Shown: positions 3,001-51,129 of the stretch, in pieces
How positions within the stretch are numbered: position 1 is the first letter of the stretch
Layout of the letters: each line of letters begins with the position of its first letter
NCBI GenBank assembly: GCA_046563655.1
Contig: CM102285.1
Coordinates: 15,004,001-15,068,000 of the forward strand
Length of the DNA: 64,000 bases
Reading direction: 5' to 3'
Source of the DNA: Yuukianura sp. NJ FZ-2021
Lineage: Eukaryota
Translations under genes and position numbers: made by a program
Notes under the pieces: model-generated
Database searches by the model: none
Seen by the model: the letters and a program-made list of their open reading frames with translations, nothing else
Told to the model about the DNA's origin: nothing

Positions 3001-4127
3001 GCACCACGGGACAGGAAACAACGCAGTTGGTTGTACTTCAAACCAAGGTCAAGCACCGTGATCCGCGGTGACCCCGATGCATTGTACACCGTCGGTTTCT
3101 ACAAAGAAAACACAAAAAAAATCTGGAGTTCTCAAATTCTGGAATGAAAATTCTGAAATTCAGAAAATCTGAAACGAAAATTCCTAAATTAAGAAAGGAA
3201 ACTTCTGGAATGAAAATTCTGTAATTCTAAGATGAAAAATCGGAAAAATGATCAAATGAACATTCTGAAATGGAGTTCTGAAATTCTGAAACGAAAATTC
3301 TGAAATTGTGAAATGTTTTGTTGTTGTGTGACCTTGACGGAGACGATTGCCGGAAGATTGGTGAGATTAGGATCTACGAATCCCGGATCCAGTCCACCCT
3401 TGACGACGACCTTGCCTAGGATGGTTCCTTGGTTGCGGATGATCTTCGTGAGTTGTCTCGTGTCGACTCCGTAGATGCCAGGCACATTGTGCTCCTCCAT
3501 CCACGTCGACAAAGTTTTGAACGCTCGCCAATGACTCGGTTCCGCACAGACTTCTCCCACGATCAGCCCTGCAGCCCAGATCCTCTCAGACTCAAAGCAT
3601 CTTTTATAAAAAGAGAAACTAATTAGTCCCGCTTTACAAAAGAAACAATGTGATCCTTGATTCTGAATGGATCTAAAATAAACACTCTTTTCAAAAACTT
3701 CTTTTCAACTTTTTTAAAAAAGAGTGTCAAAGACAAGACCTTGGTGTTCAAAGTCACTTCCGTTGCCAGAAAAAGCACGAGTTACCTCGGTATGCCGAAC
3801 GAATCTTTTTCATCAGACGGTATTCCGTAGTTACCGATGAGCGGGTAGGTCAAGACCAGAATTTGTTCGCAGTAAGATGGATCTGTCAAGGACTCTGCAT
3901 ATCCCACCATCCCTGTTTGAAAAACTGAAAACCAAAACAAAATTTTCAAAAAAATTGATTTTCATTTTGAAAATTTTTCAAAATTTTGGCTCCTCACCGA
4001 TCTCTCCCGGCACAGACTTGTGCGCCCCGAAAACGAATCCTTTGAACTCCGTTCCATCTTCCAAAATCAAACTTCCTGGAACCTCGTTCTCCCTTCCGAA
4101 ACTGCTAGAAATTGAATAAGCAACCAT
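1..4127 (-). CDS. CAD: CAD multifunctional pyrimidine biosynthesis protein, 5' part (glutamine amidotransferase plus N-terminal carbamoyl-phosphate synthetase); continues beyond position 1
   Basis: ATG at 4127 ([30 protein letters not shown]). About 13 exons joined by GT-AG introns give [29 protein letters not shown] (catalytic Cys kept), [50 protein letters not shown] and [35 protein letters not shown] is CAD-type rather than mitochondrial CPS1-type. The DHOase and ATCase domains lie outside the window, so the full fusion is inferred. Confidence 0.9.
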
Positions 4128-17022: not shown

Positions 17023-19685
17023 CTACTGTACTGCTGGACGTCTAAACTGCTGAGGTTGTGGTTGATACTGGACGGGACGTGCTGCCAGTAGTCCGCCGAG
17101 TCGCTGCTGCTGTTGCCCGGTCACTTCCGGTTCCTCTTCGTCATCGTCCGGTTGACCTCGTTTGTTGGGGTCACAGGGGTTACCACTTTGATACTCGTAC
17201 TCTCTCTTCACTCCGTCGGGGTCAACATAACCATACTTCCCACGCACAACACAGTCAACGCCTAACGTCTCTTCCTGTTCAAAAAAATGTTTTTAAAATT
17301 GACAAGTTTCATCCTTTCAGTTTCAGCAGAGTCACTAAACATAACTTACTTTGAAACTCCCATCTTCGTTTGTGTATCCCCAAGACGTTGACCCATCGTC
17401 GTTGGTTCGCATGTACCTTAGTAGTTTCAAAAAAGTGGAAATTTTTGAATGTAAAAACCGAATTTTGACTTTTCAAAAATTTTCGAAATTTTGAAATCGG
17501 AAACTCACCTGTCAAGAGTTTTGACTGGAGGTGGCGTGGAACCTTGACGGTCAGCAGTGACAAGTCGAGAATCTTGACCCAGCCTGACGGGTTGCTGCGG
17601 TTGCTGTAGCTGCAGAGGGCGCTGAATCGGTTGCTGCAGAACCGGTTGCTGCGGTTGTACCGGTCTTCGGATTTGCTGCTGTAAAGCCAATCAGAATCAA
17701 GGAAATCAGATCTAAGCCAATCAGATTCAAGCTTTAAAAAGTTAAGCTCCGCCCCTTACCAGTTGTGGCTGTGCAACTTGGAACCTAGGTGGACCAACAG
17801 GAGTCAAATTCTCTTGTTGTTGCGGAGTTGCAAGTCGGAGTGGACTGCGTTGCGGAATTGGTCTTGGGCTGGTCGCAACTTCAAGTTGCTGCAACTGCAA
17901 AACTGGACGAACTTGCGGTTGCGGCTGACCACGAAACTGTTGTTGCTGAACCGGCGCAGGCGCAGGAGATCCATCTTCGTACTCATCTTCATATTCGTCT
18001 TCTTCCGTTGACGCTTGAGTTGTTGCTGGTTTTACCCCAAGGGGAATCGGTTGAGGTCGACCGACTAGAGCAGCATTTGGAGTTGCTGGAAAAGTATTTT
18101 GACGCTGAATATAAGTTGGTTGAAGTTGCTGCGGTTGTGCTTGGTACTGCAGTTGACCTTGTGGTTGACCTTGAAACTGCGGACCAAAGGCTAACTGCTG
18201 ACTGAAAGTTGGAATTTGATTGGTTGCTGGAGCAACTGGACGCAGACCGCCGCCCAATTGGATTGACCGCAAAGGTTGCTGCTGAGCAACAGTGCAACCC
18301 AGACAGCACAAAATCACTGCCGCGTATAAATTAATCTGAAAATTGAAACACAAACATAAACTTCATTTTAGATTGCTGGTTCAATCCGGTTCAATCAATG
18401 GAACACGAAAAAAAAAATTACGGCGATGTTCGAATTCAAATTGAAACATTGAAAGTTCAAAAAATTCTTGTTCTTATGCTATTCAATTTCAAAATTTCAA
18501 AAATTTCCCACTATGTGGGGTTTCATTGTTGGCCATCTTTGGATTACGATTGCGAATAAAGGCATGAATTGTTTTCCATCAAACAACTAAACTTTACAAT
18601 TTCAATTCTTTGAAAACTGCAACTTTTTTGCAAACTGAAGTTATTACGATGTGAATAAACTCTCTCTCTTCTTTTTTATGAGTTTGCTCTAAACTTTCTA
18701 GTTGCTCATCCTGTTTAAATTGAAACCATTCACATCGTCATTCCTTCATGCTAACTCATTCATCCAGATCATAAACCATTAGGTAATTGTAGTTTGACTA
18801 AAATTAGAAAAGTGAAAACTACACTTGAAGTGAAAGGTCAAAGGTCAAATCACCCTAATATTTCATCTACACATATCCTAACTTAATGAATTAGGTTAAT
18901 AGCCTAAATGACCTTAACAATATGACTAACAAAGCTAGTGTCAGGTAATTAATCATGAAATTGTGCATAAATTGTTTGGAGTTGTGCTGGCAGGGCCGTA
19001 TGGTGTGAATTGATTTGTGATTGGTCAACGGAGTGCCAAATCAGGGAGTGAGGAACCCAATTACTCAACTCCAACTTAATGTCCAACATTATGCTTTGGG
19101 CGTGAGACCATTGTTATCCACACCACGATTTATTGCACAACTAACGTTTGAATCAATTGCAATCATCACAACACCTCACTCCAATTTACTCATTTCCACA
19201 TCACTCACACATACTAAACAAAGAACTAACGTTGTACCAGAATTGTACCAGAATACGAGAAACGAGACATTTGGCACGGTCTGGTTAAGCCGCTTTTAAG
19301 GTGTAAATCACCGAGTTAACCAGAGTTGATCCAATTTAATTTAATTAACACCGCTGCTAAATTAAACTTAAATGTTAAGCATTTTGGGGGTAAATAGGCG
19401 GAAATGGAATTGAGACGCCGAGGTGTGAAAAGGAATCGACTAACCCTGTGGCATCATTCGGCACTCAGCCACAACTAAACAAAAATTCCATAACTTTATA
19501 CACTTGCAGCAACTTCCTCCTTGCTACAACATTAGCATTTAGATTTTAAACTATTTCAACTAAAAATTTGACTTAAATTAACACAAAATCAACACATTTC
19601 CGACTCCCAGTTTGCACAATATTAAAAAAAGGATTGTTTTTAATTTTAAAAAAACACCGAATCAGCTTACCTTTGGAAGTCTCAT
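17023..19685 (-). CDS. Secreted Gln/Pro-rich cuticular protein with a chitin-binding R&R-like domain
   Basis: Exons 19685-19671, 18335-17760, 17678-17509, 17416-17350, 17274-17023 are phase-consistent. Signal peptide MRLPKINLYAAVILCCLGCTVA. C-terminal domain NDDGSTSWGYTNEDGSFKEETLGVDCVVRGKYGYVDPDGVKREYEY matches the G-x-Y-x-Y-x-D-P-D-G...Y pattern. Confidence 0.8.
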
Positions 19686-20634
19686 TTTTGGAAAATTTTT
19701 TCGAAAAGTCAAACACAGGCCAAACACAAATTGCAGAAGAAAAGAACGATACAATTCAAAAATTTGCAAGTTGAAAATTTTTGTAAGTTCTAAACACTGT
19801 TTTGAAAGAAATAAAACAATAAACTTTAGTTGTGTACTTTTCGTTAGCTCAGAATTAATTTAGAAAAAATTGAAACGGCGTTTAACTTCCGCAAATGTAA
19901 ATTTTTAGTTGACTTTTTGACAGAGTGACAGTGACTGTGCGATGGAAAGTAAAAGTGAAGGGAGTTGGAATGACTTTATATGAAGCCTTGAGCAAGGGTC
20001 CCCTGCCCCACCCTCTCCCCACTCTTCTTAGTCTGGGTGGGACTCTGCCCCACGCCCCACTATAATTCCCACCTCAGCAATCCAACACTCCCCCAGTGGC
20101 TTAATTAACAAAGGTAATGAGAAGTGTTCCCACATGACATGAATTACTTTTAAATAGGTGAATTACTTTGAATTACTTGTGGTCATAAAACACTGACTGC
20201 TTGTGTGTCCATGGTCAACTACTTCACGAAATGCAGTCAAGGGGAGGTGTCACAAATGTCACCTACACCAAAAAATTATTAACAAAACTAATCAACTCCT
20301 GGCTTCTGATCTTCATGACACAACTTGCTCTAGTTTTGATCAAAACATTTTTGATCAAAATGTCTCAAAAAATATGAAATTACGAAAAGAAATTCACATT
20401 TCTTACAATTTTACGCATTTACTCCACTCAACCAAAAAGATTTCGACATTAAAGAAAAAAAACTAAGAAATCTAAACCAAAGTTCCGAGCTAATCTTTGA
20501 CGTAGGACAATCTTTGGATCATTTTAAATTACATGTATAAATACCTAAAGTATTTGGCATTACGAAACAGTGAGATTTACAACGAAACGGATATTTTGAA
20601 AAACGTTTTTCAAACGTTCCAAAAACTTTTTTTT

Positions 20635-23016
20635 TTACATTTGCATAGGAGAAGCGTCTGTCTGCTTGTTGGCCTTTGGTGGCTGAGAGTTTGGTGGATC
20701 GCTGGGACCGTAGAAGATGAGTTCCGGAATTTGGCCTCCTTGAACTCCAGTGCCGTTCGTGCTTTCAGCGGAGCACTGGAACTGGAAAGTGACATTCCCA
20801 ACTGTCACGTCAGTCATTCCTTCTTGGCCAAAATAGCTCAGGTCCATTCCGTCCAGCACGGCAGAGGCAGTGTAGTACGTGTCAGGGTCAATCTGTCAAC
20901 AGGAAATTCAAAATTTCAGTTTTGGTTATACAAAATTCCTCAAAAAGGTCAAAGGTCAAGTTGATGTTGCATTGACCTGGACTGGCTGACGGAAGTAGAC
21001 GTGGAATGTGTTGCTGGATCCATCAGAGAAGAACTCCGTGTCATTGTCAGTCAGAATTTGACCTTGTTTTTTGAGTTCAATGTGCACGGTGTACGTGGCA
21101 GCTCCGTTCGAAGATCCGTACAGGCCAAATCCAACAATAAAAATTCTACGGTCCACTGAAAATTGAATACTGTCACACCGTCCACGGTATCTCCACTGAT
21201 TGCAACGGTACGCCGACGACTGGAATCGATGGCACACCTTACATACAGAGACAAAAACTTTTGAAACTCAAATTTTTTGTTTTCAAAAACATATTTTGAA
21301 AATGTTTTCAAAAAACATGAATTTTGACTCACTTGAGATTTGAGTCCAGTTCTTGGCGAGGTTAGGCAGTTGAGTTTTGGTTTGTTCGTTGCAGTGAAGT
21401 GCAGAAAAATGTCATGAGATTCAGCAAGTGAAAAAATTGCAAGTTGAGCAGGGCCGTCAGCAAATTCCTTGAGATCCATCATCGGAACTCGAATCAGTTG
21501 AAGTGCATTGCCTGTTGGGAAAATTAACTAATTAATTATGCAATTATCAATTGAAACATCACGTGACAATTTTTGACTTTGTACCTAAAGCTGCTCTGAG
21601 ATTGGTTGCTACTGGTTCAAGTTCACGCCGCTCGCACTCTGCCGTGGCCCATGCAATGGCGGCATTAAAAACGTGAAGTTCTTTGCAATTCAGGGTCTCT
21701 CGAGACAAAATTGTCGTGAGCGTGTCGTAGTCAATTTCCAAAAATCCATCCGAGACCAGAGCAATTTCTCCCTAAAACATCAAAATTCAAAGTTTCAAAA
21801 ATTCATTCATTTTCAAAAACTAAAATTTGAGAACCGTCAATTACTTGTGCGTCAATGACTTCCCAGCACCGTTGCATCAGTTCAAACTCGTCAAAGATTC
21901 TGGCTTGACAGAGGAGCAAACAAGCGTTGTAGGCTGTCAAACTCGCTTCTAGAAACTGGACACATGCTTTGGCAAGTTGTGGAATCATGTACTTTTTGGC
22001 AACGTGAAGCGTAGGCAGCACCGAATCTTCGTCAAGGTCAATTTCATCCCCATACAGATACCTAAAATAAAAAAAAACACAAAAATAAAAAACTGTTGAC
22101 TTATAAACCAACATTTTGAAAAAATTAAACTCACTTCAACATTTTTAAAAACGCTGGCGGTTCGACATCCGGCACCACGACTTCCTCCACAGTTTCAGCC
22201 AAATCTCCAAAGAACATTGCGTAGAACACGGAGCTTCCGATGCCCAGCACATACTTGTGTGCTGGATACTTGACCGACTCTGTTCCATTGCAACTCACCA
22301 CAAAATGAATGTCCGCCATCAGTTCGTTGTTGCACATTGCAGAGTTCCTCTCACGAATTCCATTCTTGCTCGTCTGCCAATCCTCCGTACTGTTTTGACT
22401 TGCTTGTTGCAAGCGATACTGGGCCGACTGTGATTCGTTTCTGAGGCAGTTCGGTCCAGCGTAGACGTCGGATCTTGCAGCGATTCCTGGAGAAGGCTGG
22501 AACTGATTGACCGGAAATGAACCTGGAGAAGGACAAATTGGAGCTGGAACTGCTGGAGAAGCGATTCGGGGAGAAGTGATTGGGGAGGTGGGGAGACTGT
22601 GTGGCTGCGTCACGTGGACTTGGTTAACGCTCATTCCGTTTCCGCCAATTCCTGATCCTGCAAATCCGAATGTGGAAACTGAAGTTAGCAAATCTAGAAG
22701 TGTTTCTTCCTCTTCGTCTGAATCGCTCTTTGATTTAGAATCTAAGAGTGCAAGGAAGTAAGGTGTGGACAAACAAAACAAAAACAACTTGTCAGCACAC
22801 TCCACAGACACAAATGAAAATTAAATACAATGTTAAAAGCAAAAAATGAGAGAGGGTTGGGCTGTGCCAGCTTCCGTGAGTGGATTCTGGTGCTATTTAA
22901 TGCTAAAAACTGGCACAATTGAATGCAAAATGAGGAGAAACGGAAAAAAGAGTATAAAATTTACCGCAGCCATAAAGCTCTTCCAGTGAAGATGACAAAA
23001 CTAAAAGGTCGAGCAT
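20635..23016 (-). CDS. BTB-BACK-PHR protein (BTBD3/BTBD6/lute family); start codon uncertain (23016 or 22634)
   Basis: RERNSAMCNNELMADIHFVV..YPAHKYVLGIGSSVFYAMF (BTB); LSRETLNCKELHVFNAAIAWA (BACK); RSNQWRY-like RCNQWRYRGRCDSIQFSVDRRIFIVGFGLYGS and STNGTGVQGGQIPELIFY (PHR). GT-AG introns are phase-consistent. Confidence 0.88.
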
Positions 23017-24344
23017 ACTCAAATTGTGGAACTGAAACTCAAACAGCTTAAAAGTTTACAAAAGATCAAGTTTGAAGCTAAAACTAAGATAAGTGATTGG
23101 AGATAGTGTGCTCGACAATGTATTAACTATTTAGTATGTTGTATTTTCTGAGAAACTCAAAGTTAACTTTAGCGTAGGTTCATTTTCTGGATGAGGCTGA
23201 CGAGGTGACGAACGTGATCAGCACAATCAAACTTTTAAAAGCAGTTCTTGTTTTAAGCATCGACAAAAGATACGAGTCAGTCAGCCAGCACAAACTCATA
23301 ATAAGAAAGGCTATGATTAAAGCAGGATGAATGCAAGTACACAAACATACACACATACTACATACATGTTGATGTTTAGTTAGTAGTCCGCTCTTACCAC
23401 TTATACAGTAAGTGCATGACTAAATTAAGCCATTATGTTTATATTGGCTAATTAACACCAGGAAGGGAACAGACCTAAATTAGAATACTGATACTGAATA
23501 TTTGTTTTGTGTCGCTTACTTTTAAAGGCTGCAATTACTTGGCCATCAGCTGTAATAGGAGCGTCCCAGTCGTGTACTATGTTGTCACTGCCAGAGGTCC
23601 GTCCAGCAGAGCACACTGATCTGTTCAATGTAAACATGTCACCGACCAACGTCACTCGTCCACAAATCCTTCAATCCTGACAACATCAACAAAAAATTAA
23701 ATGAGAAAGATGAGCCATTACACTGGAAGATTGCATCTTCACACCAGAATACTACTGTAAACAGAAGTAACCAAGATCAATTCCAGCAAAAAAGTAAACA
23801 AATCTATGCTGTATGTTAAGAAACGAAAGTAAATGTTGTAACACTTACCTCGGTGCATCTGCTACTCACAAAGTTGACCTTTGACCTTTAGCACTTACTG
23901 AGCAGAGCAATGATTACAAATTCGTTTGTTGTTTTTGTGAAAAGTGAAAGTAACGAATGAATGAAAACATAACGGTTTTTCCTGCTTGGTCACTTTTTTT
24001 ACTTTCTTTTTCTTTCACTCACTTTTTTAAATTCAAAACATTTGAAATTCCCGCCCACTTTTTTCGGCGTTTTGATCAAGTCAATCTATGTAGTATTTAA
24101 TGTCTAATCTGCTCCAGGCTACATTTTTTTCTAAATTTTTAAAAAACAGATGATCTTCCAAATTGTTTACGATTTTTGTAAGACATAAGTTGTACAGGTC
24201 AGTTTTCAGTTGACATCGTTTGGGGTCAAAAGGTCACATCGCCACGTTCCAAGAACGTTTGTGATCTTCGGAAGATTAACTGAAAATTAGGAAAAATTAC
24301 CTAGTTACAACTGGGAGTATTTTCTTCCACAATAAATTAAAACT

Positions 24345-25594
24345 ATGGGCATAAAATTAATTGAAAGTGGTTCTTCCAGGACACTATGGCTCCGTATACT
24401 AATCGTTGTCACTGGAATGTTAGTCATGTCAACACTGACAGCTAATGCAGCAATTGCTGGTCACACACATAGACATACTAGTGTCAATCGAGAACGAGAG
24501 GAAGATGGAGCCTTTGCACCTCGAAGTGCTTCGCACTATGGCAACAGTGACAAGAAGACTGGATCTGGCCATGACCTTGACCATAACTTGGAATTTGACC
24601 ACGAAGCAATCCTTGGCAGTACGAAAGAGGCAGAGGAATTTGATAACTTACCGCCAGAAGAGGCCAAGAGGCGACTCAAGATCTTGATAGACAAGATGGA
24701 CTTGGATAAGAACGGACTCATTGAAAAGGCAGAACTCAAAGCTTGGATCATGAGATCATTTACGTAAGAACTTCGATTGATCAATTACTTTGTGATTCGT
24801 GCTAATATGGTATAACTTTAGGATGTTGTCTGAAGAAGAAACGCAGGAACGATTTGAAGAAGCGGATGAGAACAGTGACGGTCGTGTGTCCTGGAAGGAG
24901 TACGTAGAAGAAACGTTTGGAGTTGATGCTGATGAAACTGCGATTCCTATGGAGAGTCTAGAAGAGGCCAAGGTAACCACATCAATTAATTGAAAATGTA
25001 ACGATTAATGTAAGTCCGATTGTTTCCTTTTCCTTCAGATGTTAGCAGATGACAAAGCTCTGTTTGCTGGAGCAGACAAGAACAAAGATGGATTCCTGGA
25101 TTTGAAAGAGTACTTGCCCTTTACCCACCCGGAAGAAGATCCAGAAATGCTGCCAATCGTTCTCAAACAAACACTGGATGAAAAAGACTTAAATGGAGAT
25201 GGACAGATTGACTTCAAAGAATACATTGGAGATCGTGGAAAGGACAAGACACAAGAGTGGCTGATCGATGAAAAAGCCAAGTTTGACATGGAACATGACA
25301 AAGATGGAGATGGACTCCTCAGTCGCCAGGAAATTTTGTCCTGGATTTTACCTAGCAACGAGTAACGTAACCATTATAATTTGTATGATTAACTCAATTA
25401 CTAATTGGACAATGATATTTAGAGAAATTGCTGAAGATGAAGTGAGACATCTCTTTGCTGCATCAGATGACGACCATAGTATGACTCTAACCTATAACGA
25501 AATTCTGGATCATCATGACGTTTTCGTGGGAAGTGAAGCAACTGACTACGGAGACCATCTACACTACATGGACAGATTCACTGACGAACTCTAG
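24345..25594 (+). CDS. CREC-family EF-hand ER protein, reticulocalbin-2-like
   Basis: Four exons. Signal peptide, FDHEAILG, multiple EF-hand loops (DLDKNGLIEKAE, DENSDGRVSWKE, DKNKDGFLDLKE, DLNGDGQIDFKE, DKDGDGLLSRQE), FVGSEATDYG and a C-terminal TDEL ER-retrieval-like signal. Confidence 0.9.
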
Positions 25595-25857
25595 TTTTCG
25601 TCACTTATTTGTACTGGACAAGTATTGGACAAGCAGTATTCGTCCATAGTGCCATGCCAGTCATCAAATCGCTTATCAATTTTCGACTTTCAGAACAAAA
25701 TCCAACTCGGTAAACTCCTCTTCCTAAAGTATTTCAGTCACAATCTAGCGTATTATTTAGACTTCAGTTTTATTGATACTCAATTAATAATAATATAATT
25801 AAACTAGAAAAAAAATAATTATGTTCATTAGCATCACCACCGGACTAATACGTGTGT

Positions 25858-28476
25858 TCAAACCGATTTTTTAAACAAGTTTCGAAAATCGTCATTGGAC
25901 AACGGTTTCTTGAACTCAGCGCTGGTGGTATTACTGTTCGAGGTACTAGAAGATGCTGCGGCAGTACTTTCTGTAGAAGGTGGCTGATGCACTTGGAGAG
26001 ATCGTGGCACAAAAGTTTTCGGTGGTCGTCGTTGCGTCTTCTTTTCAAACTTCGGCGGTTTGGGCCTTACGAAAGTAGAACCTCGACTTTCACCGTCGTC
26101 CTGACGCTGATCGCTGGAATTCGGTTTGGGTTGATTGAACTTCTTGATTTTTGGATCTTTGGCGCCATCTTGTTGCCCGGAATCAGTTCTCGGCCTCTTC
26201 CCTTTGCCTTTCTGGAATTTATTCTTAGTCTTGTCCTTCTTCGCTGCAATCGCTTGGACATTAGCTTCGTAGTTTTTGGCTAAGAATTCTCCTATTTTGT
26301 CCTCTGCGTGTTTCAGCATCTTCGGGTCACCGAAGTCCCGCTCAAAGTTGAGCCACAGTTCAGATACAACGTCCAGCCCATCTGACATTACACTCATGGC
26401 CTTCTCCAAACACTTTCGAGTTGAATGGACTTCGCCGTATCGCTGCTCCAGTTGGAAAAATTGGATCCACAATTTGAACTGCTGGCCATAGCCTTTGTGA
26501 AGTGCTTGGTACCAAAGTTTCCTGGACTTGGTCATGGATTTTGTCACGTGAGCTTGGAGTCGAATTCCATACAGAAGAAGTTCACCAATGTAATCTCGCG
26601 GTTCTGGAGTAACTTTAAAAAAAAAAAAGAGTTAAAAAAAGTTAACCGTCAATTAATTTAAGAACTGTAATGATAAATTGGTGTTTTACGTAGGACCAAG
26701 TGCTCCTCAGCTGTGGACAGCGTTTTCATGAACAGTTGGATATCAGCATCTACTGGATCCTGGAACTTTATTCTTCTGCGCAGAAACTGGACGTACTTCA
26801 ACCACAAACTTCCAGCTTGATCTCCAGTTCCACAATACTCCAATCCCCGCTCGAATATGGCTAAATTATCAGAGAAGACTTTTTTAATGTATGAATTTCT
26901 TGAAATGAGAGGTTCGGGGCTCACAGGGCTAAGACAAAGTGAAAAATATTGTGGAAAAATATTAGAATTGAGTAGGATTCGAACCCAAGACTCACTTCAA
27001 TACGGTAAGTGCTCTAACCTTTGAGCTATCGGGCTCCTCTTCGACTATTCCAGGACGAACTTAATTACCAAGGTATTTAAGTTAAAAAAGTTAAAATTTT
27101 TCTTAATTACCTCTGACTTTGTCTTTGACATCTTCGTTGTCACTGTTGAACTTTTCAGTTTCCAGCATCCACTGAGCCCAAATGGAAACATCCCAAGGAC
27201 AATTGCGCGTAGCTCGTTCAGCTACTTCCAGCACTACTGAACCGATTTGCAGAGAATTTGAAGCATAAGTTAAGTATTCCAGCCACAGAGAACTGTCGAG
27301 GGCGTTGTCACAAACTGCTCGTTCGAACAGACCTACAAAAAGAAAATGTATCAAAAAAAAATTTTCCAAAAAAATCTTACGTTTTTTATATTTTCAGTTT
27401 TCATGGGACATACAGACTATCCTGGCTGGATTGCTTTTGTCGCTTTTCTCAAATTCGATGTACTCCCTGTACGCTGCAGCGCTGTTTCCAGCTTCACTCT
27501 GAAAAAAAAACATAAAGTTGTCCTGAATCAGAAAAGTACATTTTTTCAATGAAATTTTTTGTGTTGTGTTTGTGTAGTGTAGTACTTACCAGTTTCGTCT
27601 CCCAGACTTCCAAAGTTTTAAGCTTTTGACCAGCATTTTTGTAGTTCCGTTCTGTAGCTTCATCGATATCAAAAATATCTTTGACACTTTCATAAGTCTT
27701 TTCCATTCCAACCAGAGGAACTCCCAGTTGACGAAAGGACAGTGACATACAGCGCAGTTTCTGTTCTTCAGTGCACTCACTGTCTGAAGCTAAAAGTTCC
27801 AGTTCAAACTCCCTGTAAGCATCCCAAAGAACAATTCCTTGAGTAACGTGAAGCCCAACTGCAGCAAGAGCTCGTTCAGCCACGACTCGACATTCGATGA
27901 TCTTCTCTGGGCCCATTTCACGTAAGAACTGAATGTACTCCAGCCAAATCTTGACCGCTAGAACGAAAAAATAGGAACAGTTGAGAAACAATTCGGAAAT
28001 GACAACGATATTTTTGTGTTACACTGATAGTCCTTGACAGCCATCTCGAAAAGGTTGATGATGTCTGACTTCCCGCTGAGATCAGACACGAGGTTGGATT
28101 CGTCGTGTATCCAAGCTAACCAAAGTTCTGGAGTGAGTGGATACAGTTTGCTTAAGGTTCCTCGAGTTGTCCGCAGTTCTTTCAGTTCTCCCATACTTCT
28201 CAGTATTTCTATTTTCTCAACAAGCAGCTCGTAAGAATTGGGTTGATTACTGATCTATTGAATAGAAATACGTGTCAGAGTAAGAAATGATAGATCAGAA
28301 ATGTAAAAGTTAAGTGGACCAACCTGTTCATTTATCGTATCGAGTTTTCTACGCATGGCTTCGTCTTGTTCGTCCATTTCTATGTCTTCTTCATCGGATG
28401 AACTTGAAGAACAATCTGACCCGCTGTTGGATACGTCGTCTTCCCCTGGTATCGGCTGATCATCTTCATCTTCCAT
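25858..28476 (-). CDS. SART3: SART3/p110/Prp24-like U4/U6 recycling factor, 661 aa, apparently lacking RRMs
   Basis: Exons 28476-28324, 28254-28023, 27957-27590, 27498-27414, 27332-27111, 26860-26690, 26612-25858 total 1986 nt in frame. Acidic N-terminus; HAT repeats (YPLTPELWLAWI, ERALAAVGLHVTQGIVLWDAYREFE, ERATRNCPW); C-terminal LSm-interaction motif SNDDFRNLF. Confidence 0.88.
26966..27036 (-). pseudogene. tRNA-derived remnant (SINE head or tRNA pseudogene) in a SART3 intron
   Basis: The minus strand reads gagcccgaTAGCTCAAAGGttagagc...GGTTCGAATCCtac, with A and B boxes at tRNA spacing, but the acceptor and anticodon stems do not pair convincingly. Confidence 0.55.
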
Positions 28477-28872
28477 TCTTACAATGTGGTTGTGTAAACT
28501 GAAGTTCAGTTAAAGACAAAAACAAAATTAGGGAAGAGTTAAACATGATTTAATTTATAATCCAAATATGTATGTTAAATCAATGAGTTAATTGTTCTTA
28601 CCACAGTCGCGAGCCAGGCCAGACATTAATCAGTTAAATTCAAAAATTCAATTAACGGCACTTTGTTTATCGGTGTGGTCGTGGTGTGCGTCCGGGTTTT
28701 TGTTTTGCTAATTTGCATAAATTCGAATGAGTTCAAAAATTCAAACCGACAAAGTTCCCGCCAGTGAAGAAAAATCGAAGCCTTTAAGTATATTTGTCGG
28801 TTGACGTAAACCCAGATTGCACTTGTTGTAATCATATCCTATACTATAACTGTAAAACTATCATACGGATAG

Positions 28873-29064
28873 GTGTTGCTGGATGGATAAAATATTTCGC
28901 CCACTCTCTTCGGAAGTAGTGGATATATTCTTATTTTATTGGTTTCTTTCTGACAAAACTTAATTTCTTCCATCGAAGGCTAGATTTTATCCGGATTTGG
29001 TTTTATCCATTTATCCAGTAGATGTAACCTGGGTGAAATGCAAAGTAGTGGATATCCATCAACA
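28873..29064. mobile_element. Short MITE-like element between SART3 and U1-70K
   Basis: Ends gtgttgctggatggata and tatccatcaacac are imperfect inverted repeats. It shares ggat(a/g)gataaaatatttc and agtggatatcca with 16749-16886. Confidence 0.55.
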
Positions 29065-29554
29065 CTATACACTAGGTAGTTACAATGCTTTCTCACTTTA
29101 AAAGACGTACATCTTGTGGTTTATGTAGCTAGTGTGACCCTACATCGGGTGGATACCGATACCGGATGGATAAAAGCTTTGGCGCCAGCATTTACATTGT
29201 GCGATTACAAGGAATGCAATTTGAGCTTACACTTACCTACTGATCCGTGTCGATCCGATACCGAAGTAAGGTTTACGGTAGGCGGCACCTATAGTAGACA
29301 CGGCATCAGGGGGATCTTTTTGTTTCTCATTCTCAATTTTCAATTCAATTGAATTTATTTAACATCGTTTTTACGTTTTCCTCAGTGTAATTACTTTTTA
29401 AAAGTTAAGTCATCGTCGATTAGTGAATCCTGGCTACAACTAACCATCAGGAAAGGACAGGGAAAGAGCTGATCAACGTTACTGCGTTTCTACATCGACC
29501 ATTCGATCAGCTGACTGGGTTAATTAACTTCATAAGAGATCATAGAAGATAAAG

Positions 29555-32425
29555 ATGACCCAGTTCCTTCCGCCCAATCTGCTCGCCCTCTTTGCAGCCA
29601 GAGACCCCATTCCATACCTCCCTCCTGTCCAACGCCTGAGCCACGAGAAACGAACAACAGGATACACTGGAGTCAGTGACTATCTCGACTACTTTGAGGT
29701 ATTTCAACCGTTTACTCTTACTAAATACTTGATTCTTACTTTGATTAATCACTCAAATTACTTTTCAGACTGGTCCACCACCACCCCGAGAAAAGTATGA
29801 AACGAAAGAAGAGAGACTGGAAAGGAGGCGACGGGAGAAGCAGGAACAAGTGACGTATAAACTGGAACAGGAAATTGCCATGTGTAAGCGGATGGATTTC
29901 GATTAATAATTAAGCAGAGATACGCGAGCTATTAATGTAACTTTTGTTACTTTGCAGGGGACCCTGCTGCCAATGAGAAGGCAACATCAGATCCTTTCAG
30001 AACGATATTCGTCGGAAGAGTTGTAAGTTACTCATCATCTCATCCGTAATCGGTCCAGTTCATACTTTATAATAATCGTTCTTCGTTTTCCAGAACTATG
30101 ATACTACTGAGAGCAAGCTCAAGAGAGAATTTGAAGCGTACGGAGATATCAAGAAGGTATCCAAGTCTATCTGGCGATTCGATAACTAGTTACTTACTTT
30201 ACATTCAAAATCCAGTCTGATACTATTTTGATTTTTAGATTGTCATTGTGAAGGACAAGAAAACGTCAAAGCCACGAGGGTATGCATTTGTGGAATACGA
30301 ACATGAGAGAGACATGCACTGTAAGTATATCCCAAAAGTACTGCCAGTATCCAGTATCATTTGTCTTTCAGCTCAACTCACAAATGTCCCAATACTTCCC
30401 TCCACTAGCAACTTCATAGCTAAAAGATGCGCATTTCAGTTCTTCTCCACCTTTTACAAATTCATCAGCGCATATTTTCATAGTAGTTTAAATCATTAGC
30501 CGCGCCCAACTTGGTTCGCTCAGGTAAAAACCATGAGGTAAAAATAGCGAAAATGTTGCGGTTAAAAGGTAAAAATTGTTTCATTGTGGATCCGTCACTC
30601 TGCAAACAAGGCGAAAAATAACGGTAATCGATTGACTTGTGTGTGGAAGGTAAAAATGGTAAACACTTTTCAATTTTTCGTTTTTTGAAATATTTTGGCA
30701 GAGGGGTAACTGCCGTGTTTTAACTTTTAACTTTTAGTAAAAGTTTCGTTGAGCTTGGTAAGCCAACAAACTTTTTTTTAACTTTGTGCGTTCAACGTTT
30801 TCTTGAATTCCTTTCTCGGGTAAGTCAGAGAAAAAGCCGAAGTCACTTTCCGAGACAATCCGAATTTAAATTTTCCACAAAAGTAAGTAAGTGTTAAGGG
30901 TAAGTTGGTAAGTTTCAAATTAACTGAACCAACAGAAAAACGGTTTAAAAACAAACATAGCATAGGGTGTCCCCACTTCCATTTTTCATAGTTAATTTCT
31001 TAAAAATTTCCAAAATTGAATGATTGATCCAACTTTTCCTCTGCCGTTATAGGTTACCATCCATAAGACACAACTTCACCCGTGCGAGCTAGTAATTTTC
31101 GGTAGGTTGATGTCAAAACAAACAGAAAAATCGGGTTTTCTAAAATTAGAGTTTTTTTTTTAAGTTTCATTTCAGGGGCTTTTGAAACTTACCTCTTCAA
31201 AAGTTCCTGAGCTTTCTATTATTCTTTTGGAGTTTTAAAAAAAACTTGAAAGTTTTTGGAAAAAGTTAGAAAAGTTAATGCCAAACATGTTTGGAAAATG
31301 GAAACCATATTGGAACCTTAACGTTTTTTGGTAGAACCTTTTGCTTGGTTCATGCGCGTACAATTTATACTGACGAAAAAGATGCGCATAGATTCGGAGC
31401 CTTTTTGTTTCGTATAATTTGATTTTGGCCTAATTTCATTTTTGTACTTTTAGCTGCCTACAAACATGCTGATGGGAAGAAGGTCGACGGAAAACGAATT
31501 TTAGTGGACGTGGAACGTGGCCGAACTGTCAAGGGATGGCTACCAAGACGATTAGGTAAGTGAGATTAATCGATTAATACCATGAATTAATCGATTAACG
31601 ACATTTTAAAATAGTGAAATGATGACTTTACCGTATTTTGAATTTTAGGTGGTGGTTTGGGCGGAACTCGACGAGGAGGTCCAGACGTCAACGTCAAAAT
31701 CTCAGGACGCGAAGATCCAGATCGAGAGCGGTTCCGGGACGAAAAGAGCCGTGATGACCGTCGCGAGAGCAGGAGAGACCGTGACAGATCCAAGGATCGG
31801 AACGGTTCGATCGACCGAGATCGGAGGGACCGCCGTCGTGAAGATCGTGTTGCTCGGAATCCCGACCGTGATCGAGACAGAGAGCGACCGCGTGAGCGTG
31901 ACAAAGACAAGGAGAGCAGGAAGCGTCGTCGATCACGTTCGAGAGACAGAGTTCCAGAGGAAGAGGAGGAGAGGTCAAGGAAGAGGTCACGGTCACGTGA
32001 GAAGAAAAGACACAGGGATCGATCCAAGGACAAGGAGAAGAAGAGGGACAGAAGAGACAAGGATCGAGACCGGTAAACAGTCACTTTTCGCAATTTTCAA
32101 AAAAAATATTTTGTAAAAAATTCTGGTTTTGACTAATTTTTAATTTTTTGACTTTTTGCAGCGATCGAAGTGACAGAAAAGAACGGAAGGTGAAGACGGA
32201 AAAGAATTTTAAAGACGATGACGACGAGTTGAACGAAAACGGTTCTCACGTTCGAATCAAACAGGAACCAATGGATGACGGTAGTTTTGAAAAACTATTT
32301 ACAAAAACATTTTGACTTTTTTTTTCTGAAATTTTGATTTTGCAGAGTACGGAGGCTATGACGATGGATACAATGACTATGGCCATGGAGGTGACGAACC
32401 TTACGTGAAGCAGGAGGGGGAGTAA
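29555..32425 (+). CDS. SNRNP70: U1 snRNP 70 kDa protein
   Basis: Exons 29555-29698, 29769-29883, 29958-30022, 30094-30156, 30239-30320, 31454-31555, 31649-32072, 32162-32280, 32346-32425. [25 protein letters not shown] with [45 protein letters not shown] and an RD/RS-rich tail. Confidence 0.97.
30372..30913 (+). promoter_or_regulatory. Putative stop-containing cryptic exon plus donor-site cluster in the long U1-70K intron
   Basis: Acceptor ttgtctttcag ending at 30371, in-frame TAG at 30497-30499, and about 13 GTAA donor-like motifs between 30524 and 30913. Confidence 0.65.
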
Positions 32426-34117: not shown

Positions 34118-37100
34118 TTACAAGTGTGATTTAGTTTCGTGGCGATAGAAGTTGATTTTGGTTTCGGAATTGAAGTGATGCGTGTCATGTCCAATGCCAT
34201 TGTGACTTCCAGCGTTGCGCAGACCATCGCGAATCATGTTACCAAAATCCACGTGAACTTGTGAAAAGTTCTTGATCGCTCGTTCCTGGATAAAGGTCTC
34301 TGTATTTTTTAAACTTGCCACAATATTGTCAACCAATCGCTGCCTCTCTTCTGGTTTCAGCACCTTCGTCCAGAAAATCGTCACTTGAGAGAAGTTGTCT
34401 TCATCTGCCGAGTCGTACCGGTCCACTTCTCCACTCAAATGAAACTTTCCGACTTGTGCTTCACGACTTTCCTCCGAACCGCTGAACGAACTTGGAAAAT
34501 AGTTTGGAGCTCCGCCCCTTTGTGGACCATGTGCTGCCCAAAGCAGTCTCGAAGTATTGTTGACCTCAATTGATTTCTGCGGAGAGTTGACCGGGAGATT
34601 AGCAAAGGCCGGGCCAAGTCGATGTCTCTGAGTGTCCAAGTAGGAGAAGAGGCGACCTTGAAGCATCTTGTCCGGCGACGGCTCGATTCCTGGCACGAGA
34701 TTGGCTGGAGAAAAAGCCAGGGCCTCAACATCATTGTGGTAGTTCGTTGGATTTCGATTGAGAACCAACTTTTAAAAAAATTAAATTAAAACTTCGAGTT
34801 ATATTGCACAACCTGGTGTGGAGAAAGTTTTTTTTTGTTTACGAACCTTGCCCACGGGGAGTAACGGAAAGTCTCCTTGTGGCCAAACTTTAGTGAGGTC
34901 AAATGGATTGAATTTGACCTTTTGTGCTTGGTCAAAGGTCATGACCTGAAGAAACATTGTCCAGGATGGGAAGTTTCCAGTGGCAATGGCATTGTAGAGG
35001 TCATGGAGAGAGTAGTCTGGATCATCAGCTGATAGGCGATGAGCAACATCAGCTGGGAGGTTTCGGATGCCCTGATTGGTCCGCATGTGGAACTTGCAGT
35101 AAACCGGTTCGCCTGAGGCGTTGACCATTTTGAATGTATGACTTCCATAACCGTGCATGTGACGAAAACCGTCCGGAATTCCACGGTCGGAGAACAAAAA
35201 GCAAAACTGGTGAGTCGTTTCGGGTCGCAGAGTTTGAAAATCCCAGACCATGTTGGGATCCTGTGAAAACGCAAGTTAGCCGAATCTCAACCCAGTTTCA
35301 ACTCAGTTTTTTTTTGTGTTTTAACATAGTTTTAACTTAAGTTAATTTTCGTTTTAACCTTACTTTGAGATGTGTTTGTGGATTTCGTTTTTGCGTGTGG
35401 ATGAAACTGGGGAAGAGGATTGGATCCCGAATGAAGAAAATGGGTGTGTTATTTCCAACGAGATCCCAGTTACCGTCTTCCGTGTAAAACTTGGTAGCGA
35501 ATCCACGCGGATCTCGAACGGTATCCGCCGAACCGGATTCTCCACCTACAGTTGAAAACCGTACCGCAATTGGAGTTTTCGTTCCGAGCCGAAACACCTT
35601 GGCTTTCGTGTACTTGGAAATGTCATGAGTCGGTTCGAAGTAACCGAAGGCTCCAGCACCCTTCGCATGGACAACCTGCAGAAAACGAACGCACTCTTCT
35701 AAACGGTCTAAAATTTCGAAGATTTTATGAAATTTTAAACTTTTTTTCTTCAATTTACTCTCTCCGGAATTCTTTCACGGTCGAAGTGTGCCAAGTGCTC
35801 GACGAGATTTGTGTCCTGCAACAGGATTGGTCCACGCGGTCCGACCGTCAAGGACTTTGTAACTGTAGGAACTTTGGCTCCAAATGCATTCACTACTGCT
35901 CCGTGTTTCTAAAAAAAAATCAAAAAATTGACATTTTTTGAAAAACAACTTCGAAAAAGTTTTGTAAGAAATTATGTATTTGTGACCTCGTTACGTAACT
36001 TCTTGATTGTCACAATTACGAAAGGTCACAGAAGGTCAACTTATCTTTGAGTCAAAGTCAGCTTCAAAACTTAGTATTACTTAACATCTACATTAAAATC
36101 ATGCTTAGGTAAGCAAGTACACAGAGAAAGGTCAGCAAGGTCAGCATTCACATCGCATTTCATAACTGTCAACTGCGTACTTAAAATTTTCCGAAATTAC
36201 GAAATTCTTCTAGAACATTTTCAAAAAAACGCAATTTGGTGTTAAATGTTTCACTTCTGCTAAACATCCACACCATTTTATTTATTAAGTATCGTCAGAT
36301 ACTTTTAGGGATCGTAATGTCCGTCTGTCCGTCCGTCCGTCTGTCCGTCCGTCTGTCCGTCCGTCTGTCCGTCTGTCCGGCCGTCCGTATACTAGCCACA
36401 ACATCTCTGGAACCGCTGGACCGATTTTCAATCTGTCTTTACAGATGAACTTGACATTGTCCAGGGATGATTTATCGGTGTCCAGCTTGACCGGAAGTTG
36501 TCCAGGTTCGGGTCAAAGGTCAAGGTCAAATACATTTTTGACGGAAATCGGGAAAGTCACCCTTATAAAAGTTGTACGTCTCATCGAGACGAACAACTTT
36601 TGTATAAGTGACCTTGACCTCTGACCCGGGGCTCTGGAGATATAGGCCTTACAAGTTGCATTATGGCGAGGCTCATGCAATTCGCGTCTATAACTCCAGA
36701 ACCACTGGACCGATTTTCAATCTGTCTTCGCGGTTGCGGTTCACATGTACCAGGGGTGTATAATCAGTGTCCAGCTTGACCGGAAGTTGTCCAGGTCCGG
36801 GCCAAAGGTCAAGGTCAAGTACTCTATTGACGGAAATCGGAAAAATTACCTCTACAAAAGTTGTGTATCCCATTGTGCTGAACAACTTTTGTAAAGATGA
36901 CCTTGAGCTTTGATCTACGTTTCCAGAGATACAGACGATAGAAGTTGCAAAATGGCGTCCCTCGTCCTAGTCGGGGAAGCATGACCTACTTTATGTTTTC
37001 TCCCGAGTCTGTCTGTCTGTCTGTCTGTCCGTCTGCCTGTCTGCACAATAGTGTCAAAGGTCAAGGTTATGCTTTCTTTACAATACGGAAACGGATGGAC

Positions 37101-38074: not shown

Positions 38075-41000
38075 TTAAAATTTTAGCAAGTTTGGTGGCA
38101 TTGTTTGTTTCGAGAAAAACGCGTCGACATCGTCATCTGACGGATCCTCACTCCCACGTGACACTGTCCCCAATCGCTGTTGACTCGAATTCAGCCGCTG
38201 CGTAGACGCCGATTTCCCAAACGACGAATTTTCACGACTCGCGGATTTACCAAACGACGAATTTTCACGGCTTGCCGTCAATGGATTTGTACCGCCTCCA
38301 CTAATCAACCTTCCCCCAATTCCGATTGGTGTAGAAACGTCACGTGACGCTGATAACTTTCCGCTTGACGCAGTTCCAGACCCTGGAAGCAGCGTATTGG
38401 ATAAGCCCCGCCCCCCAGCAGCCTCCATTGGTCCATTTCGAAAGCCACGCCCACTTCCATCTTTAGCGCTTCTGTTAAAGGGACTTTCGATTCTCACTTC
38501 AGGAAATCGCTGCGGTGGTGTAGAAACTGCAGGAGGGCTGAAATATTGGAAAATTCACGTATTGAATTTCAAAAAATTTGAGTTTCTTCAAATTTTACTT
38601 GTTTGGAGCATTTTGTCCAGAATTTTGTCCACTTCGTTTCCCTTGTGTCCTTCCCTCCAGTTTTTTCAACTCTTCGACATACATTTTTCCGTCTTTGTTT
38701 CCAGTTTCTTTTGAAATTCGGATGAGTTGCTGGAGAGCCTGGATATTTTCTGGAAACTGCTGATGAACTTTTTGGTAACTCTCGAAAGCAAGCGCAGTAT
38801 TTCCGATTTTCTTGTAGCAAGTTGCAATTGCCAGGAGCCATTTTGGATCCAGAGGTCGAAGGTCATTGCACTGCTTGTAGAAAATAATCGCACGTTCTGG
38901 AACGTTCACGTCGCTCATCATGTACGACGCAATCCATTCTATAACATCTACATTCGCTGGATTGCACTTGTACGACTACAAAAATAAAAAATCGGAGTAA
39001 TCGGATTTCAAAGTAAGTCGATTTCTGAGTATTCCGTTTTTCAAAGTATAGTCTATTTCTAAGTAATCCATATTTCAAAGCATTGACTCCTAAAGCACTA
39101 GATTTCTCAATGTAACGATTTCAGAGAAATCGATTTTCCAAAGGGATTTCTGAGTAATCGATTTTTTCTTACGTCGTAGTAGTACTGATACGCTTGTCTT
39201 CTGTCCCCATCTCTCTCATATAACACAGCCATTTTGGTCAGAATTCCGTCATCAGTGGGAGAGAGTGCGAGGGCCTTCAAGTACCACTCCATGGCCACTT
39301 CGATTTCTCCCATCAACTCATGCGTACGACCGATTTGGTAGAGCACATGCGCATGGTTCCTCACGAGGCCAAGGATTTTGTGAAAGTAATCGAGCGATTC
39401 TTCAAAAAATCGAAGTTTTTGACTCATGAGTCCAAGGTTGTAGAGAGCTTCGACTGAAGATGAGTCCATGGACACTGCTTCCAAGTACAATTGCTTTGCT
39501 CTCTCGATTTCACCACGCGCAGCCATGCAGTTCCCTAAATTCACCATTGCGCAGGAGTTGTAGTAATCGGCAACTTTGGCTGCCTCGCCGTACTTTTCTG
39601 CTTGGTCCAAGTCTCCTTGCTGGAGGTCAATAAAAATGTCAAGGTCAAAAGAGGTCAAAGGTCAAGGTCAAAAAGTGGAAAACTTGCCAAGTAGAAGAGA
39701 AATGACAAATTGGTTGCCGCTGCTGTTGCCACTTTGGTTTCTTTCTTTTCAAACGATTTCAAAATTTCAATTGCTTCTCCCAGTTCGCGTTGTTTGAGAA
39801 AAACCAAGGCTTTGCTGATCTGAAAAATTCAAAAAATTTCAAAAATTTTGAATTTCTTTTTTTTTTCAAAATTCGAAATTTTTTTTTCGAAAAATTAACC
39901 TCGAGTGCATGTGCCAGTGGAGCATGACGTGAAGACTTGATGGCTTCCGTGACCCAGTGGTATCCTTCCGTAAAAGTAGTTTCGATAAACGGAGCGATTA
40001 AGCGCGCTGCACTCAAAACGCAGCGTTCAGCGTAAGTTCGTCTCTCTTTTTCCAATTTCCATAATTTATCATTCTTCAAAACTTCCACCAGCAGTTGCGA
40101 TACTGGATCATCCTAAAATTTAAAATTTCAGAATTTTTTTCAAATTCAAATTTTTTGTTTTTCAAAAATGTGAAAATTTTGTGTGTCCTTACTGAAATCG
40201 GTGTGTATTTGTCTTCGTCGTCGACTTCCAACGGAACTTGGAGGAGTTCCTGGAAACTTTGTTTCGTTTTCTGCTGATCTCCAGCCATGAAATTGGCCAC
40301 CACAAGATGAAGTCCTGTTTTGAAACTTGGTTTTTCTGTCATGATGTACTCAAAACTGGCAGCAGCATCTTCGGGATGACTGATTTTGAGAAAAACTAAA
40401 CCCATGTTGTGCATCAACTTGAGTCTTAAAGATCGATTGCTGTTGGCCAACTGATCCATGGCCATTCGGTACATTTTGATTGCACGCGTCGGCTGATTCT
40501 GCTTCAAGTAAATATTCCCCATGTTGATCTTCACTTTTGCACCGTGGACCAAAAACTTGTTTTTCGTAATCGAGTGGTAAGTACTCAGAGCCTAAAAGTC
40601 AGCAAAGGTCAAAGGTCAACTCAAAGTTCAGTTGCATTGTTTCTTTTACCTCAGTGTACATCTCACAAGCTTCGTACTGATTTGCCAGGTTGAAAAGGAC
40701 CTAAACCAAGATTTTCAAAAAACGATTTTTAGGTTTTAAAAAACGTTTTTTAAGTTAATTAGTTTTTTTTAGATTGCAGTTGTTTTTTTTTACTGAAAAT
40801 GAAATGTCCCAGTCGTGACCTTCGAGTAGACTGGCTTGTTCGCGAAGTTTCATGAGTGACCTCTCCTTTTGCTGAGCGTCCTTGGCATGTTCAAGGGCCT
40901 TCTGGAAGTGCCCTTTGCAATTGGCCAACACAGATTCCTCAATTATCACGCTGATCTTCTCCTCGATCTGCTTAATCTTCGACTCCGGTCTGGAATTAAT

Positions 41001-41879: not shown

Positions 41880-42279
41880 TTTCTTCGGTTTGGTCCAAAA
41901 TTGAAAGATTCTAACTTTTTAAAGTCAAATGAGCAGCCTTTTTCTTATAGTATAGAAAAAACAGCCCAAACACCAAACATCTAAACACTTCTGGAACCTG
42001 GAATCCAAAAGCTCCGGACTAAATTCGCGAATTGGATCAAAATTCCTACAACGTTGTAGAAAAAATCGATCACGATCGATTTCACAGGTAAACCACGACA
42101 ATTTATTTACTTATTCATATAACTCCTCCAAGCCAGATCTAATCGATATGATTTGTTGTGCATTTGAGTTACCTTGATGAATCAATACACAGCTGAGATC
42201 ATGCGCCTTAGCATTAATTTGAGTAATTTGGTTTTTCCTACAGCTACTAAGGAAGAGAATCATCCAAGTTTAAATTGAA

Positions 42280-42780
42280 ATGGCAGGACCAGCACTTCGT
42301 CGTCTGATGACCGAGTACAAGCAGTTGAGCATCAATCCTCCCGAAGGAATCCTCGCTGGCCCAGTTACTGAAGAAAACTTCTTCGAATGGGACGCTCTCA
42401 TCACGGGTCCAGAAGGAACTTGTTTCGATGGCGGCATTTTTCCAGCCAAACTCCGCTTCCCCACTGACTACCCGCTTAGTCCACCTCAGATGATATTCAA
42501 GTGCAACATGTTCCATCCCAATGTTTATCCGGACGGGAGAGTCTGCATTTCCATTCTGCATGCTCCTGGAGACGATCCAACTGGATATGAATCTCGTGCT
42601 GAAAGATGGAGTCCTGTTCAGTCGGTAGAGAAGATCCTACTGTCTGTCGTTAGTCTTTTGGCGGAACCGAACGACGAAAGTCCAGCAAATGTGGATGCGG
42701 CAAAGATGTGGCGTGAGAATCGGGCGGAATTTAACGCAAGAGCGGCCAAGTTGGTTCGTGAAACTTTGGATATTCCTTGA
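42280..42780 (+). CDS. UBE2G2: Ubiquitin-conjugating enzyme E2 G2 (Ubc7), intronless CDS
   Basis: [39 protein letters not shown] (catalytic Cys plus acidic loop), [14 protein letters not shown]. Probable 5'UTR intron at 42088-42243. Confidence 0.96.

Positions 42781-45881: not shown

Positions 45882-51129
<5,248 letters not shown>

Follow-up and report, generated by a model that had tools for sequence, protein, structure and literature searches.

A SART3 homolog without RNA recognition motifs in DNA of a springtail-like arthropod

Described SART3 proteins and how this gene compares

SART3 and Prp24 are treated as U6 small nuclear RNA (snRNA)-binding chaperones of spliceosome recycling, and the contacts made by the HAT domain of human SART3 include the deubiquitinases USP4 and USP15. 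Here we describe a SART3 homolog that keeps the HAT domain and the C-terminal LSm-interaction tail and has none of the family's RNA recognition motifs (RRMs). The gene lies on the minus strand at 28476..25858 of a stretch of 64,000 nucleotides (nt) from Yuukianura sp. NJ FZ-2021 (contig CM102285.1), which we call the window, and its seven predicted exons encode a product of 661 amino acids (aa). With a probability of roughly 0.6, we read it as an intact, selected gene of a springtail-like arthropod, descended from the SART3/p110 (Prp24-family) U4/U6 recycling factor and encoding a protein-only adaptor without RRMs.

For comparison we draw on selected passages of two papers on SART3 and Prp24. 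In those taken from Stanek et al. (2003; PMC2173746), human SART3, also called p110 or Tip110 (963 aa), has the order HAT domain, basic region and C-terminal LSm motif that we find in the window protein. The human protein differs in carrying two U6-binding RRMs between its nuclear localization signal (NLS) and its tail, which are needed for recycling in vitro, whereas the window protein reaches 661 aa without them. In human cells, the HAT domain plus NLS is described as necessary and sufficient for Cajal-body targeting; the LSm contact is made through the last 10 residues, and constructs that lack them lower LSm4 in Cajal bodies (PMC2173746). Engineered human constructs from the same work (HAT+NLS and deltaCT10-deltaRRM) resemble the window protein in combining HAT and NLS with no RRMs, and RRM-less HAT+NLS constructs still reach Cajal bodies in HeLa cells (PMC2173746). 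They differ in that they also lack the LSm motif and act as dominant negatives on LSm4, whereas the natural protein keeps this motif directly behind its linker.

In the passages of the second paper (PMC5855946), the HAT domain dimerizes and binds Prp3 of the U4 small nuclear ribonucleoprotein (snRNP), efficient recycling in vitro requires the HAT domain and the RRMs and does not require the tail, and LSm2-8 alone is reported to recycle U4/U6. The tail is given there as common to all SART3/Prp24 homologs, with two to four RRMs in each case discussed. Yeast Prp24 shares with the window protein this conserved C-terminal LSm-binding peptide, the SNFFL box (PMC5855946), yet the two are reduced in opposite directions: S. 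cerevisiae Prp24 has four RRMs and no HAT domain, and the window protein has a HAT domain and no RRM.

By path on a tree of HAT domains (see below), the nearest named relative of the window protein is SART3 of Allacma fusca (P0142, 'unnamed protein product'); the highest HAT identity, 47%, is to L002, a canonical gene from a metagenome. The Allacma protein resembles the window protein in its basic linker ending in an F-K/V-x-P motif, in the segment RKPPTAFVPRSLQVHK and in a C-terminal ..N.DF..F.K motif. Unlike the window protein, it has two RRMs (RRM_1 at E 1.9e-35, in two stretches). A literature search over titles and abstract openings found no prior description of an RRM-less SART3 and no item joining 'SART3' with 'Collembola'.

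The last exon and the missing RRMs

The first-pass annotation of this DNA had described the last exon as a single frame running from the final HAT repeats through a Lys-rich stretch into the tail, and the translation bears this out. Exon 7 (25858..26612, minus strand) encodes the last HAT repeats, a basic linker, the LSm tail and the stop in one unbroken frame, which is open over 25858..26631, with an AG acceptor at 26613/26612 and the stop codon at 25860-25858. All of the motifs listed in that annotation are present in its 250-aa translation: WIQFFQLEQRYG, WLNFERDFG, the Lys-rich stretch, PKPPK...FVPRSLQ and SNDDFRNLF. The last of these had been called terminal; the motif stands, and its position needs a small correction, with KKSV following before the stop.

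Several searches place the HAT domain in the SART3/Prp24 family. HAT-type Pfam matches occur in five of the seven exons, exon 3 alone exceeding the cut-off and exon 7 giving weak ones, and tblastn matches cover residues 77-547 of Allacma SART3. When exon 7 was compared with PDB chains using phmmer, residues 16-131 aligned to the last HAT repeats of human SART3 (5ctr_A 206-321, E 7e-10), and the best four chains were all SART3 (5ctr and 5ctq among them, E 7e-10 to 8e-9). Suppressor-of-forked, crooked-neck and SYF1 chains ranked below these, at 1e-7 or weaker. Since SART3 chains rank first, we rejected an identity as another HAT-repeat RNA-processing protein (CRNKL1/Clf1, SYF1, PRP39, CstF-77 or PRP6).

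An AlphaFold model of the last exon, built on an 8-row alignment, has a mean predicted local distance difference test score (pLDDT) of 67.5. Six helices span residues 4-128, with a block at pLDDT 83-96 over residues 11-120; these are the last HAT helices (26227..26601, minus strand), which also carry the match to human SART3 HAT-C. Residues 129-238 have no secondary structure (mostly pLDDT <50), a short helix follows at 239-247, and there is no strand anywhere. The Lys/Arg-rich disordered linker (26032..26226, minus strand; residues 129-193, pLDDT mostly <50) matches no Pfam family, and we infer that it is NLS-like. Behind it lies a conserved post-RRM segment, RRPPKTFVPRSLQVHQ (25984..26031, minus strand), common to RRM-bearing springtail SART3, with the counterparts RKPPTAFVPRSLQVHK in Allacma and RKPQKSFIPRSLQVQH in P0001, the best relative of the exon. 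The LSm-interaction motif of the family, ...PLSNDDFRNLFK... (25873..25908, minus strand; residues 235-246), is found marginally, with Lsm_interact (PF05391) at 22.7 bits against a cut-off of 21.4 (E 7e-5); the motif SN.DFRNLFKK is kept in both the window protein and P0001.

No RRM segment had been seen in the last exon, and Pfam, tblastn with RRM-bearing relatives and the AlphaFold model all agree. None of the seven exon translations matches an RRM family at E<=10 (Pfam), and the linker region of ~110 residues cannot hide an RRM because the model shows neither secondary structure over 129-238 nor any strands. The RRM parts of three relatives (P0002, P0003 and P0014) match nothing in the 64 kb (tblastn, E<=0.01); the only matches of these proteins in the whole window are to the HAT exons and the tail of the SART3-like gene. 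We also scanned with Pfam 145 of the 156 stop-to-stop open reading frames (ORFs) of at least 45 aa that overlap 19.0-34.0 kb, 11 at 18894-19859 being left out. One of the 145 matches RRM_1 (30239-30496, plus strand), and it is part of the neighboring U1-70K-like gene (Pfam, 19.9-34.1 kb). Past the SART3-like stop, the space is taken by a convergent EF-hand (calumenin-like) gene with its end at ~25594, which leaves no place for additional exons on that side. The check for extra RRM exons or a stand-alone SART3-type RRM gene was therefore negative throughout the 64-kb window. The window protein, of SART3 descent and without the two or more RRMs of the SART3/Prp24 family, is best called an RRM-less SART3 derivative.

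The same searches bear on whether the gene was split, with the RRM pair relocated to a gene of its own and that gene's product associating in trans with the HAT-tail protein on the U6 snRNP. This idea has a general argument behind it, that U6 binding by the RRMs is thought necessary, and no direct pointer in the data. We consider it improbable: tblastn found no SART3-type RRM coding sequence in the window, unrelated genes occupy both flanks here and in a related contig (L001, below), and, with the tail belonging to the HAT protein, RRMs split off as a separate protein would miss their usual LSm anchor.

How the RRMs were lost can be approached from the flanking motifs. In Allacma, 222 residues separate FKIPAIP from RKPPTAF, including the RRM_1 stretches (up to 744-812) and the AISNPPP end of RRM2. 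Their counterparts in the window, FVRPKPP and RRPPKTF, are 7 residues apart, and motif positions and alignment place the deletion junction at 26011..26073 (minus strand). With 222 residues in Allacma against 7 in the window, ~215 residues are therefore gone, in line with the earlier estimate that about 200 aa holding both RRMs had been cleanly removed. The excision is old, kept the reading frame and took place within a springtail clade. If the ancestor was L002-like, three introns were lost along with the RRMs, which suggests a single genomic deletion that removed both. Such a deletion of ~215 codons would have run from inside the exon coding for the last HAT repeats to inside the final exon, taking with it the pre-RRM linker, both RRMs and, judged from the relative's gene, three intervening introns. 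The acidic N-terminus, the full HAT domain, the basic NLS-like linker, the PP..FVPRSLQVH segment and the LSm-interaction helix would be what remained.

Matching contigs, gene trees and competing readings

An exhaustive phmmer search with the last exon returned 139 representative relatives at E<=1e-3. Pfam scans covered 56 of them (the best 40, plus 16 in which a crude RNP1 pattern found nothing or that were HAT-only in appearance), and the remaining 83 were judged only by that crude pattern and by reading their last 30 residues. The best relative, P0001 (261 aa), is 65% identical in one aligned stretch (2-248) and has the same order as the window: last HAT repeats, basic linker, ..FIPRSLQV.. 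and ..SNSDFRNLFKK, with no RRM. Among the 56 scanned proteins it is the sole one that joins HAT-C to the tail with no RRM_1 match; all others with a tail carry at least one such match. Three further candidates for an RRM-less parallel were rejected: P0026 (721 aa) has a HAT domain and a Gly/Gln-rich end with no tail, P0285 (673 aa) stops within the basic linker, and P0286 (Mytilus, 969 aa) finishes with a repeated stretch that is mis-modelled.

The second-best relative, P0002 (561 aa), is a fragment of a canonical SART3 and has two RRMs; its tail segment PPTAFVPRSLQVHK is nearly the same as PPKTFVPRSLQVHQ of the window. Its nearest named relative is the Allacma fusca protein P0142 (877 aa), at 77% identity. 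P0142 is also the top match of an exon-3 profile (E 7e-37, 46% identity; next match 1e-26). Among the SART3 relatives listed, which include insects, molluscs and frogs, no named springtail occurs besides Allacma fusca; SART3 proteins of other springtails may be absent from the collection, or may be too diverged or RRM-less to rank.

Three loci emerged when metagenome contigs were scanned. The contig that carries P0001, L001 (3987 nt), encodes the whole gene, at 66-74% identity per exon and with equal intron phases at the last two junctions. Its neighbors are those of the window, with a U1-70K N-terminus head-to-head upstream and a calumenin-like C-terminus tail-to-tail downstream. Because it is the same gene with the same neighbors, we take it to be the ortholog in another species. 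The other two loci, L002 and L003, come from the same metagenome and are canonical genes in which the HAT-C exon continues into RRM1, with at least three introns before the tail exon. The L002 tail matches Lsm_interact at E 1e-9, and its neighbors differ from those of the window. Neither overall guanine-plus-cytosine (GC) content nor that at third codon positions (GC3) discriminates, for L001 versus L002/L003, one organism from several.

Over 587 aligned codons, the proportions of synonymous (pS) and nonsynonymous (pN) differences between the window and L001 are 0.82 (saturated) and 0.18. By region, pN is 0.16 in the HAT domain, 0.31 in the linker and 0.24 in the tail. With synonymous sites saturated, the ratio of the two rates (dN/dS) is not expressed as a number. 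All linker length differences between the two genes are in frame. Judging from these comparisons, the RRM-less form of SART3 is old and under purifying selection.

The SART3-like stretch also occurs in five public runs, which belong to two studies. In run X1, which may be the source sample, a 6999-nt contig spans all of 25700-28700. A 728-nt contig of run X4, from a different study and with a different organism label, spans 25783-26507, reaching from the last HAT helices into the tail; it differs by one substitution and by 3 nt inserted in frame behind 26034. Changes in length are tolerated in the disordered linker, with the frame kept. The RRM-less junction is no assembly error, because contigs from two studies bridge it, and the possibility of an assembly deletion raised with the first-pass annotation can be put aside. 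More broadly, we find it extremely unlikely that the gene is an artefact or a dying gene, be it through assembly deletion, a mis-joined contig or pseudogene formation. No observation speaks for this, and apart from the bridging contigs, the same architecture and synteny recur in a second species, no stop interrupts the frame across the seven exons, every indel relative to L001 or in run X4 preserves it, and pN stands at 0.18 against saturated pS.

Two variants in these runs deserve mention. Runs X2 and X3 have a G>A change at 26062 in the linker, which reads as synonymous. Run X2 also holds a second contig of 315 nt over 26150-26464, with 25 substitutions and 2 gaps (~92% identical), at a depth of 22 against ~260 for the main contig; it stops short of the deletion junction. 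Its origin may lie in a divergent haplotype of a pooled sample, in a low-copy paralogous fragment or in a related contaminant.

We placed the protein on two trees, in both of which it groups with SART3 orthologs. The maximum-likelihood HAT tree has 477 columns and 20 rows; the rows of the window, L001 and L002 were assembled from tblastn pieces placed on P0142 coordinates. In this tree, the window and L001 form a 100/100 pair, within a 100/100 clade that also holds Allacma fusca SART3 and L002, both RRM-bearing; inside the clade, Allacma joins the pair with weak support (80/68). The HAT-C tree (20 rows, 142 columns) recovers the same wider clade, with 11 rows at 100/99 support, and its nearest row outside the RRM-less pair is P0005, a 160-aa fragment (85/85). 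The tree topology is explicable without duplication.

The trees matter most for the idea that the gene is a diverged paralog, with a canonical HAT-RRM-RRM SART3 elsewhere in the genome carrying out U6 recycling and the RRM-less copy sub- or neo-functionalized. Such a copy might compete for LSm2-8, Prp3 or Cajal-body sites, or target deubiquitinases. A long stem leads to the RRM-less pair (0.76 changes per column on the HAT tree, 1.0 on the HAT-C tree), a pattern also expected of a diverging paralog, and the low-depth 315-nt X2 contig, ~92% identical to 26150-26464, could fit as well. In the passages cited above, the RRMs are reported as required for recycling in vitro (PMC5855946), and engineered human SART3 without C-terminal parts is dominant-negative on LSm4 localization (PMC2173746). 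The canonical L002 and L003, found in the same metagenome as L001, point in the same direction. However, the topology (L002,(Allacma,(window,L001))) requires no duplication, and there is no RRM-bearing sister at short distance, the nearest outside row, P0005, being a fragment with no visible RRM. Only one Allacma SART3 occurs among the listed matches, L002 does not share the U1-70K and calumenin neighbors, and purifying selection on the HAT domain is strong. We therefore rate a paralog as a serious alternative, though one held at clearly less than even odds.

Several of these observations count against an orthologous adaptor, among them the shared metagenome of L001 with L002 and L003 and the long stem. 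The chief argument against a sufficient RRM-less factor is the in vitro need for the RRMs, by which such a protein should be a poor recycling factor alone; it is also what keeps a canonical second copy a serious alternative. The Lsm_interact match is marginal in the window and sub-threshold in the ortholog P0001 (16.9 bits); the canonical Allacma protein itself gives no Lsm_interact match at E<=1, the short model being insensitive either way. The transcript structure, finally, is a prediction. The gene tree, together with the conserved synteny, inclines us towards an orthologous adaptor, and it seems slightly better than an even bet that the RRM-less gene is the lineage's only SART3.

If the gene is such an adaptor, its direct grip on U6 snRNA would have been lost. 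The C-terminal helix, by sitting on the LSm2-8 ring, would probably tether the protein to the U6 snRNP, while self-association, binding to Prp3 of the U4 snRNP, targeting to Cajal bodies and possibly binding to the deubiquitinases USP4/USP15 would be tasks of the HAT domain. A protein-only bridge of this kind could bring the U6 and U4 snRNPs together, leaving the chaperoning of RNA to LSm2-8, Prp3 or another factor. It is tempting to extend this to a whole springtail-like hexapod lineage without a canonical copy, whose spliceosome has long been run by a SART3 unable to bind U6 via RRMs; we hold this more tentatively, at a little below even odds. U4/U6 re-annealing in that lineage would depend on the tether of tail and HAT domain, and LSm2-8, Prp3 or some further factor would have assumed the chaperone step.

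A natural, conserved protein with the tail and no RRMs is the reverse of the in vitro requirement as given in the passages of PMC5855946, where the RRMs are necessary and the tail is dispensable. With it, tethering by protein contacts and RNA binding could be told apart as functions of SART3. A sole copy would be at odds with the idea that U6 must be bound directly, and would direct attention to a compensating factor; a lineage truly without a canonical copy would be a natural experiment in which the SART3/Prp24 RRMs are dispensable in vivo. A paralog, in turn, would be a naturally occurring competitor for LSm2-8, Prp3 and Cajal-body sites and could help in studying what SART3 does outside splicing, deubiquitinase targeting included.

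Exon structure and neighboring genes

The seven-exon transcript structure is a prediction, with GT-AG borders at all exons. Exon 1 (28324..28476, minus strand, as are all that follow), set by ORF and splice sites, has 51 codons beginning with a start codon at 28476-28474, which is preceded by an in-frame stop; it encodes an acidic, Ser/Asp/Glu-rich N-terminus that is matched in L001. The first HAT repeats are in exon 2 (28023..28254), which matches residues 77-149 of Allacma SART3 by tblastn and is 74% identical to L001. Exon 3 (27590..27957) continues the HAT repeats, with Pfam HAT_PRP39_N at 29.3 bits against a cut-off of 27.7 and identities of 73% to L001, 52% to L002 and 46% to Allacma. 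Exon 4 (27414..27498) is a short HAT-linking exon, placed by its GT-AG borders and continuous frame and 73% identical to L001; exon 5 (27111..27332) has HAT repeats with weak Pfam HAT matches and a tblastn match to Allacma residues 277-374.

Exon 6 (26690..26860) encodes a HAT repeat and has two possible acceptors. The preferred one is at 26861/26860; the alternative at 26879/26878 is in frame and adds 6 residues. A 667-aa model using the acceptor at 26878 was dropped for the 661-aa model with the acceptor at 26860, 18 nt downstream, after comparison with L001, where the junction reads R-G-V-FERAL against R-A-I-FERGL in the window. With exon 6 starting at 26860, the length of 661 aa given in the first-pass annotation is reproduced. 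A possible poly(A) signal, AATAAA, lies at 25769..25774 (minus strand), ~85 nt past the stop, as a consensus match only.

A tRNA-like fragment occupies 26970-27030 (minus strand) in intron 5; its Rfam tRNA score of 23.1 bits is below the gathering score of 29 (E 0.032). The stretch 26999-27031 is shared by other contigs of runs X1-X3 with different flanks, and the matching intron in L001 is much shorter. The fragment looks like a dispersed tRNA-derived repeat. ARAGORN found no tRNA in the window, and no Rfam family reached its gathering score there.

The window is compact animal DNA, with a GC content of ~0.39-0.40 and short GT-AG introns. The U1-70K-like gene on the plus strand (Pfam U1snRNP70_N 29546-29903, RRM 30239-30496) stands head-to-head with the SART3-like gene, ~1.1 kb apart (28476-29555), and the pair is kept in L001 (~224-834). 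The two genes may share a bidirectional promoter region. On the other side, the convergent EF-hand calumenin-like gene, ending in ..DEL, covers 24336-25594 (ORF translation and Pfam).

Farther out, we read the names of putative genes from ORF translations and, in some cases, Pfam matches. We take these to be a CAD-like carbamoyl-phosphate synthase (300-3700), a BTB-BACK-PHR protein (20638-22820), a catalase (34121-35774), a TPR protein (38598-40591), a ubiquitin-conjugating enzyme (42274-42777), a P-type Ca-ATPase (46677-50077) and a phosphodiesterase (59104-63113). Gene density in the window is ~1 gene per 5 kb.

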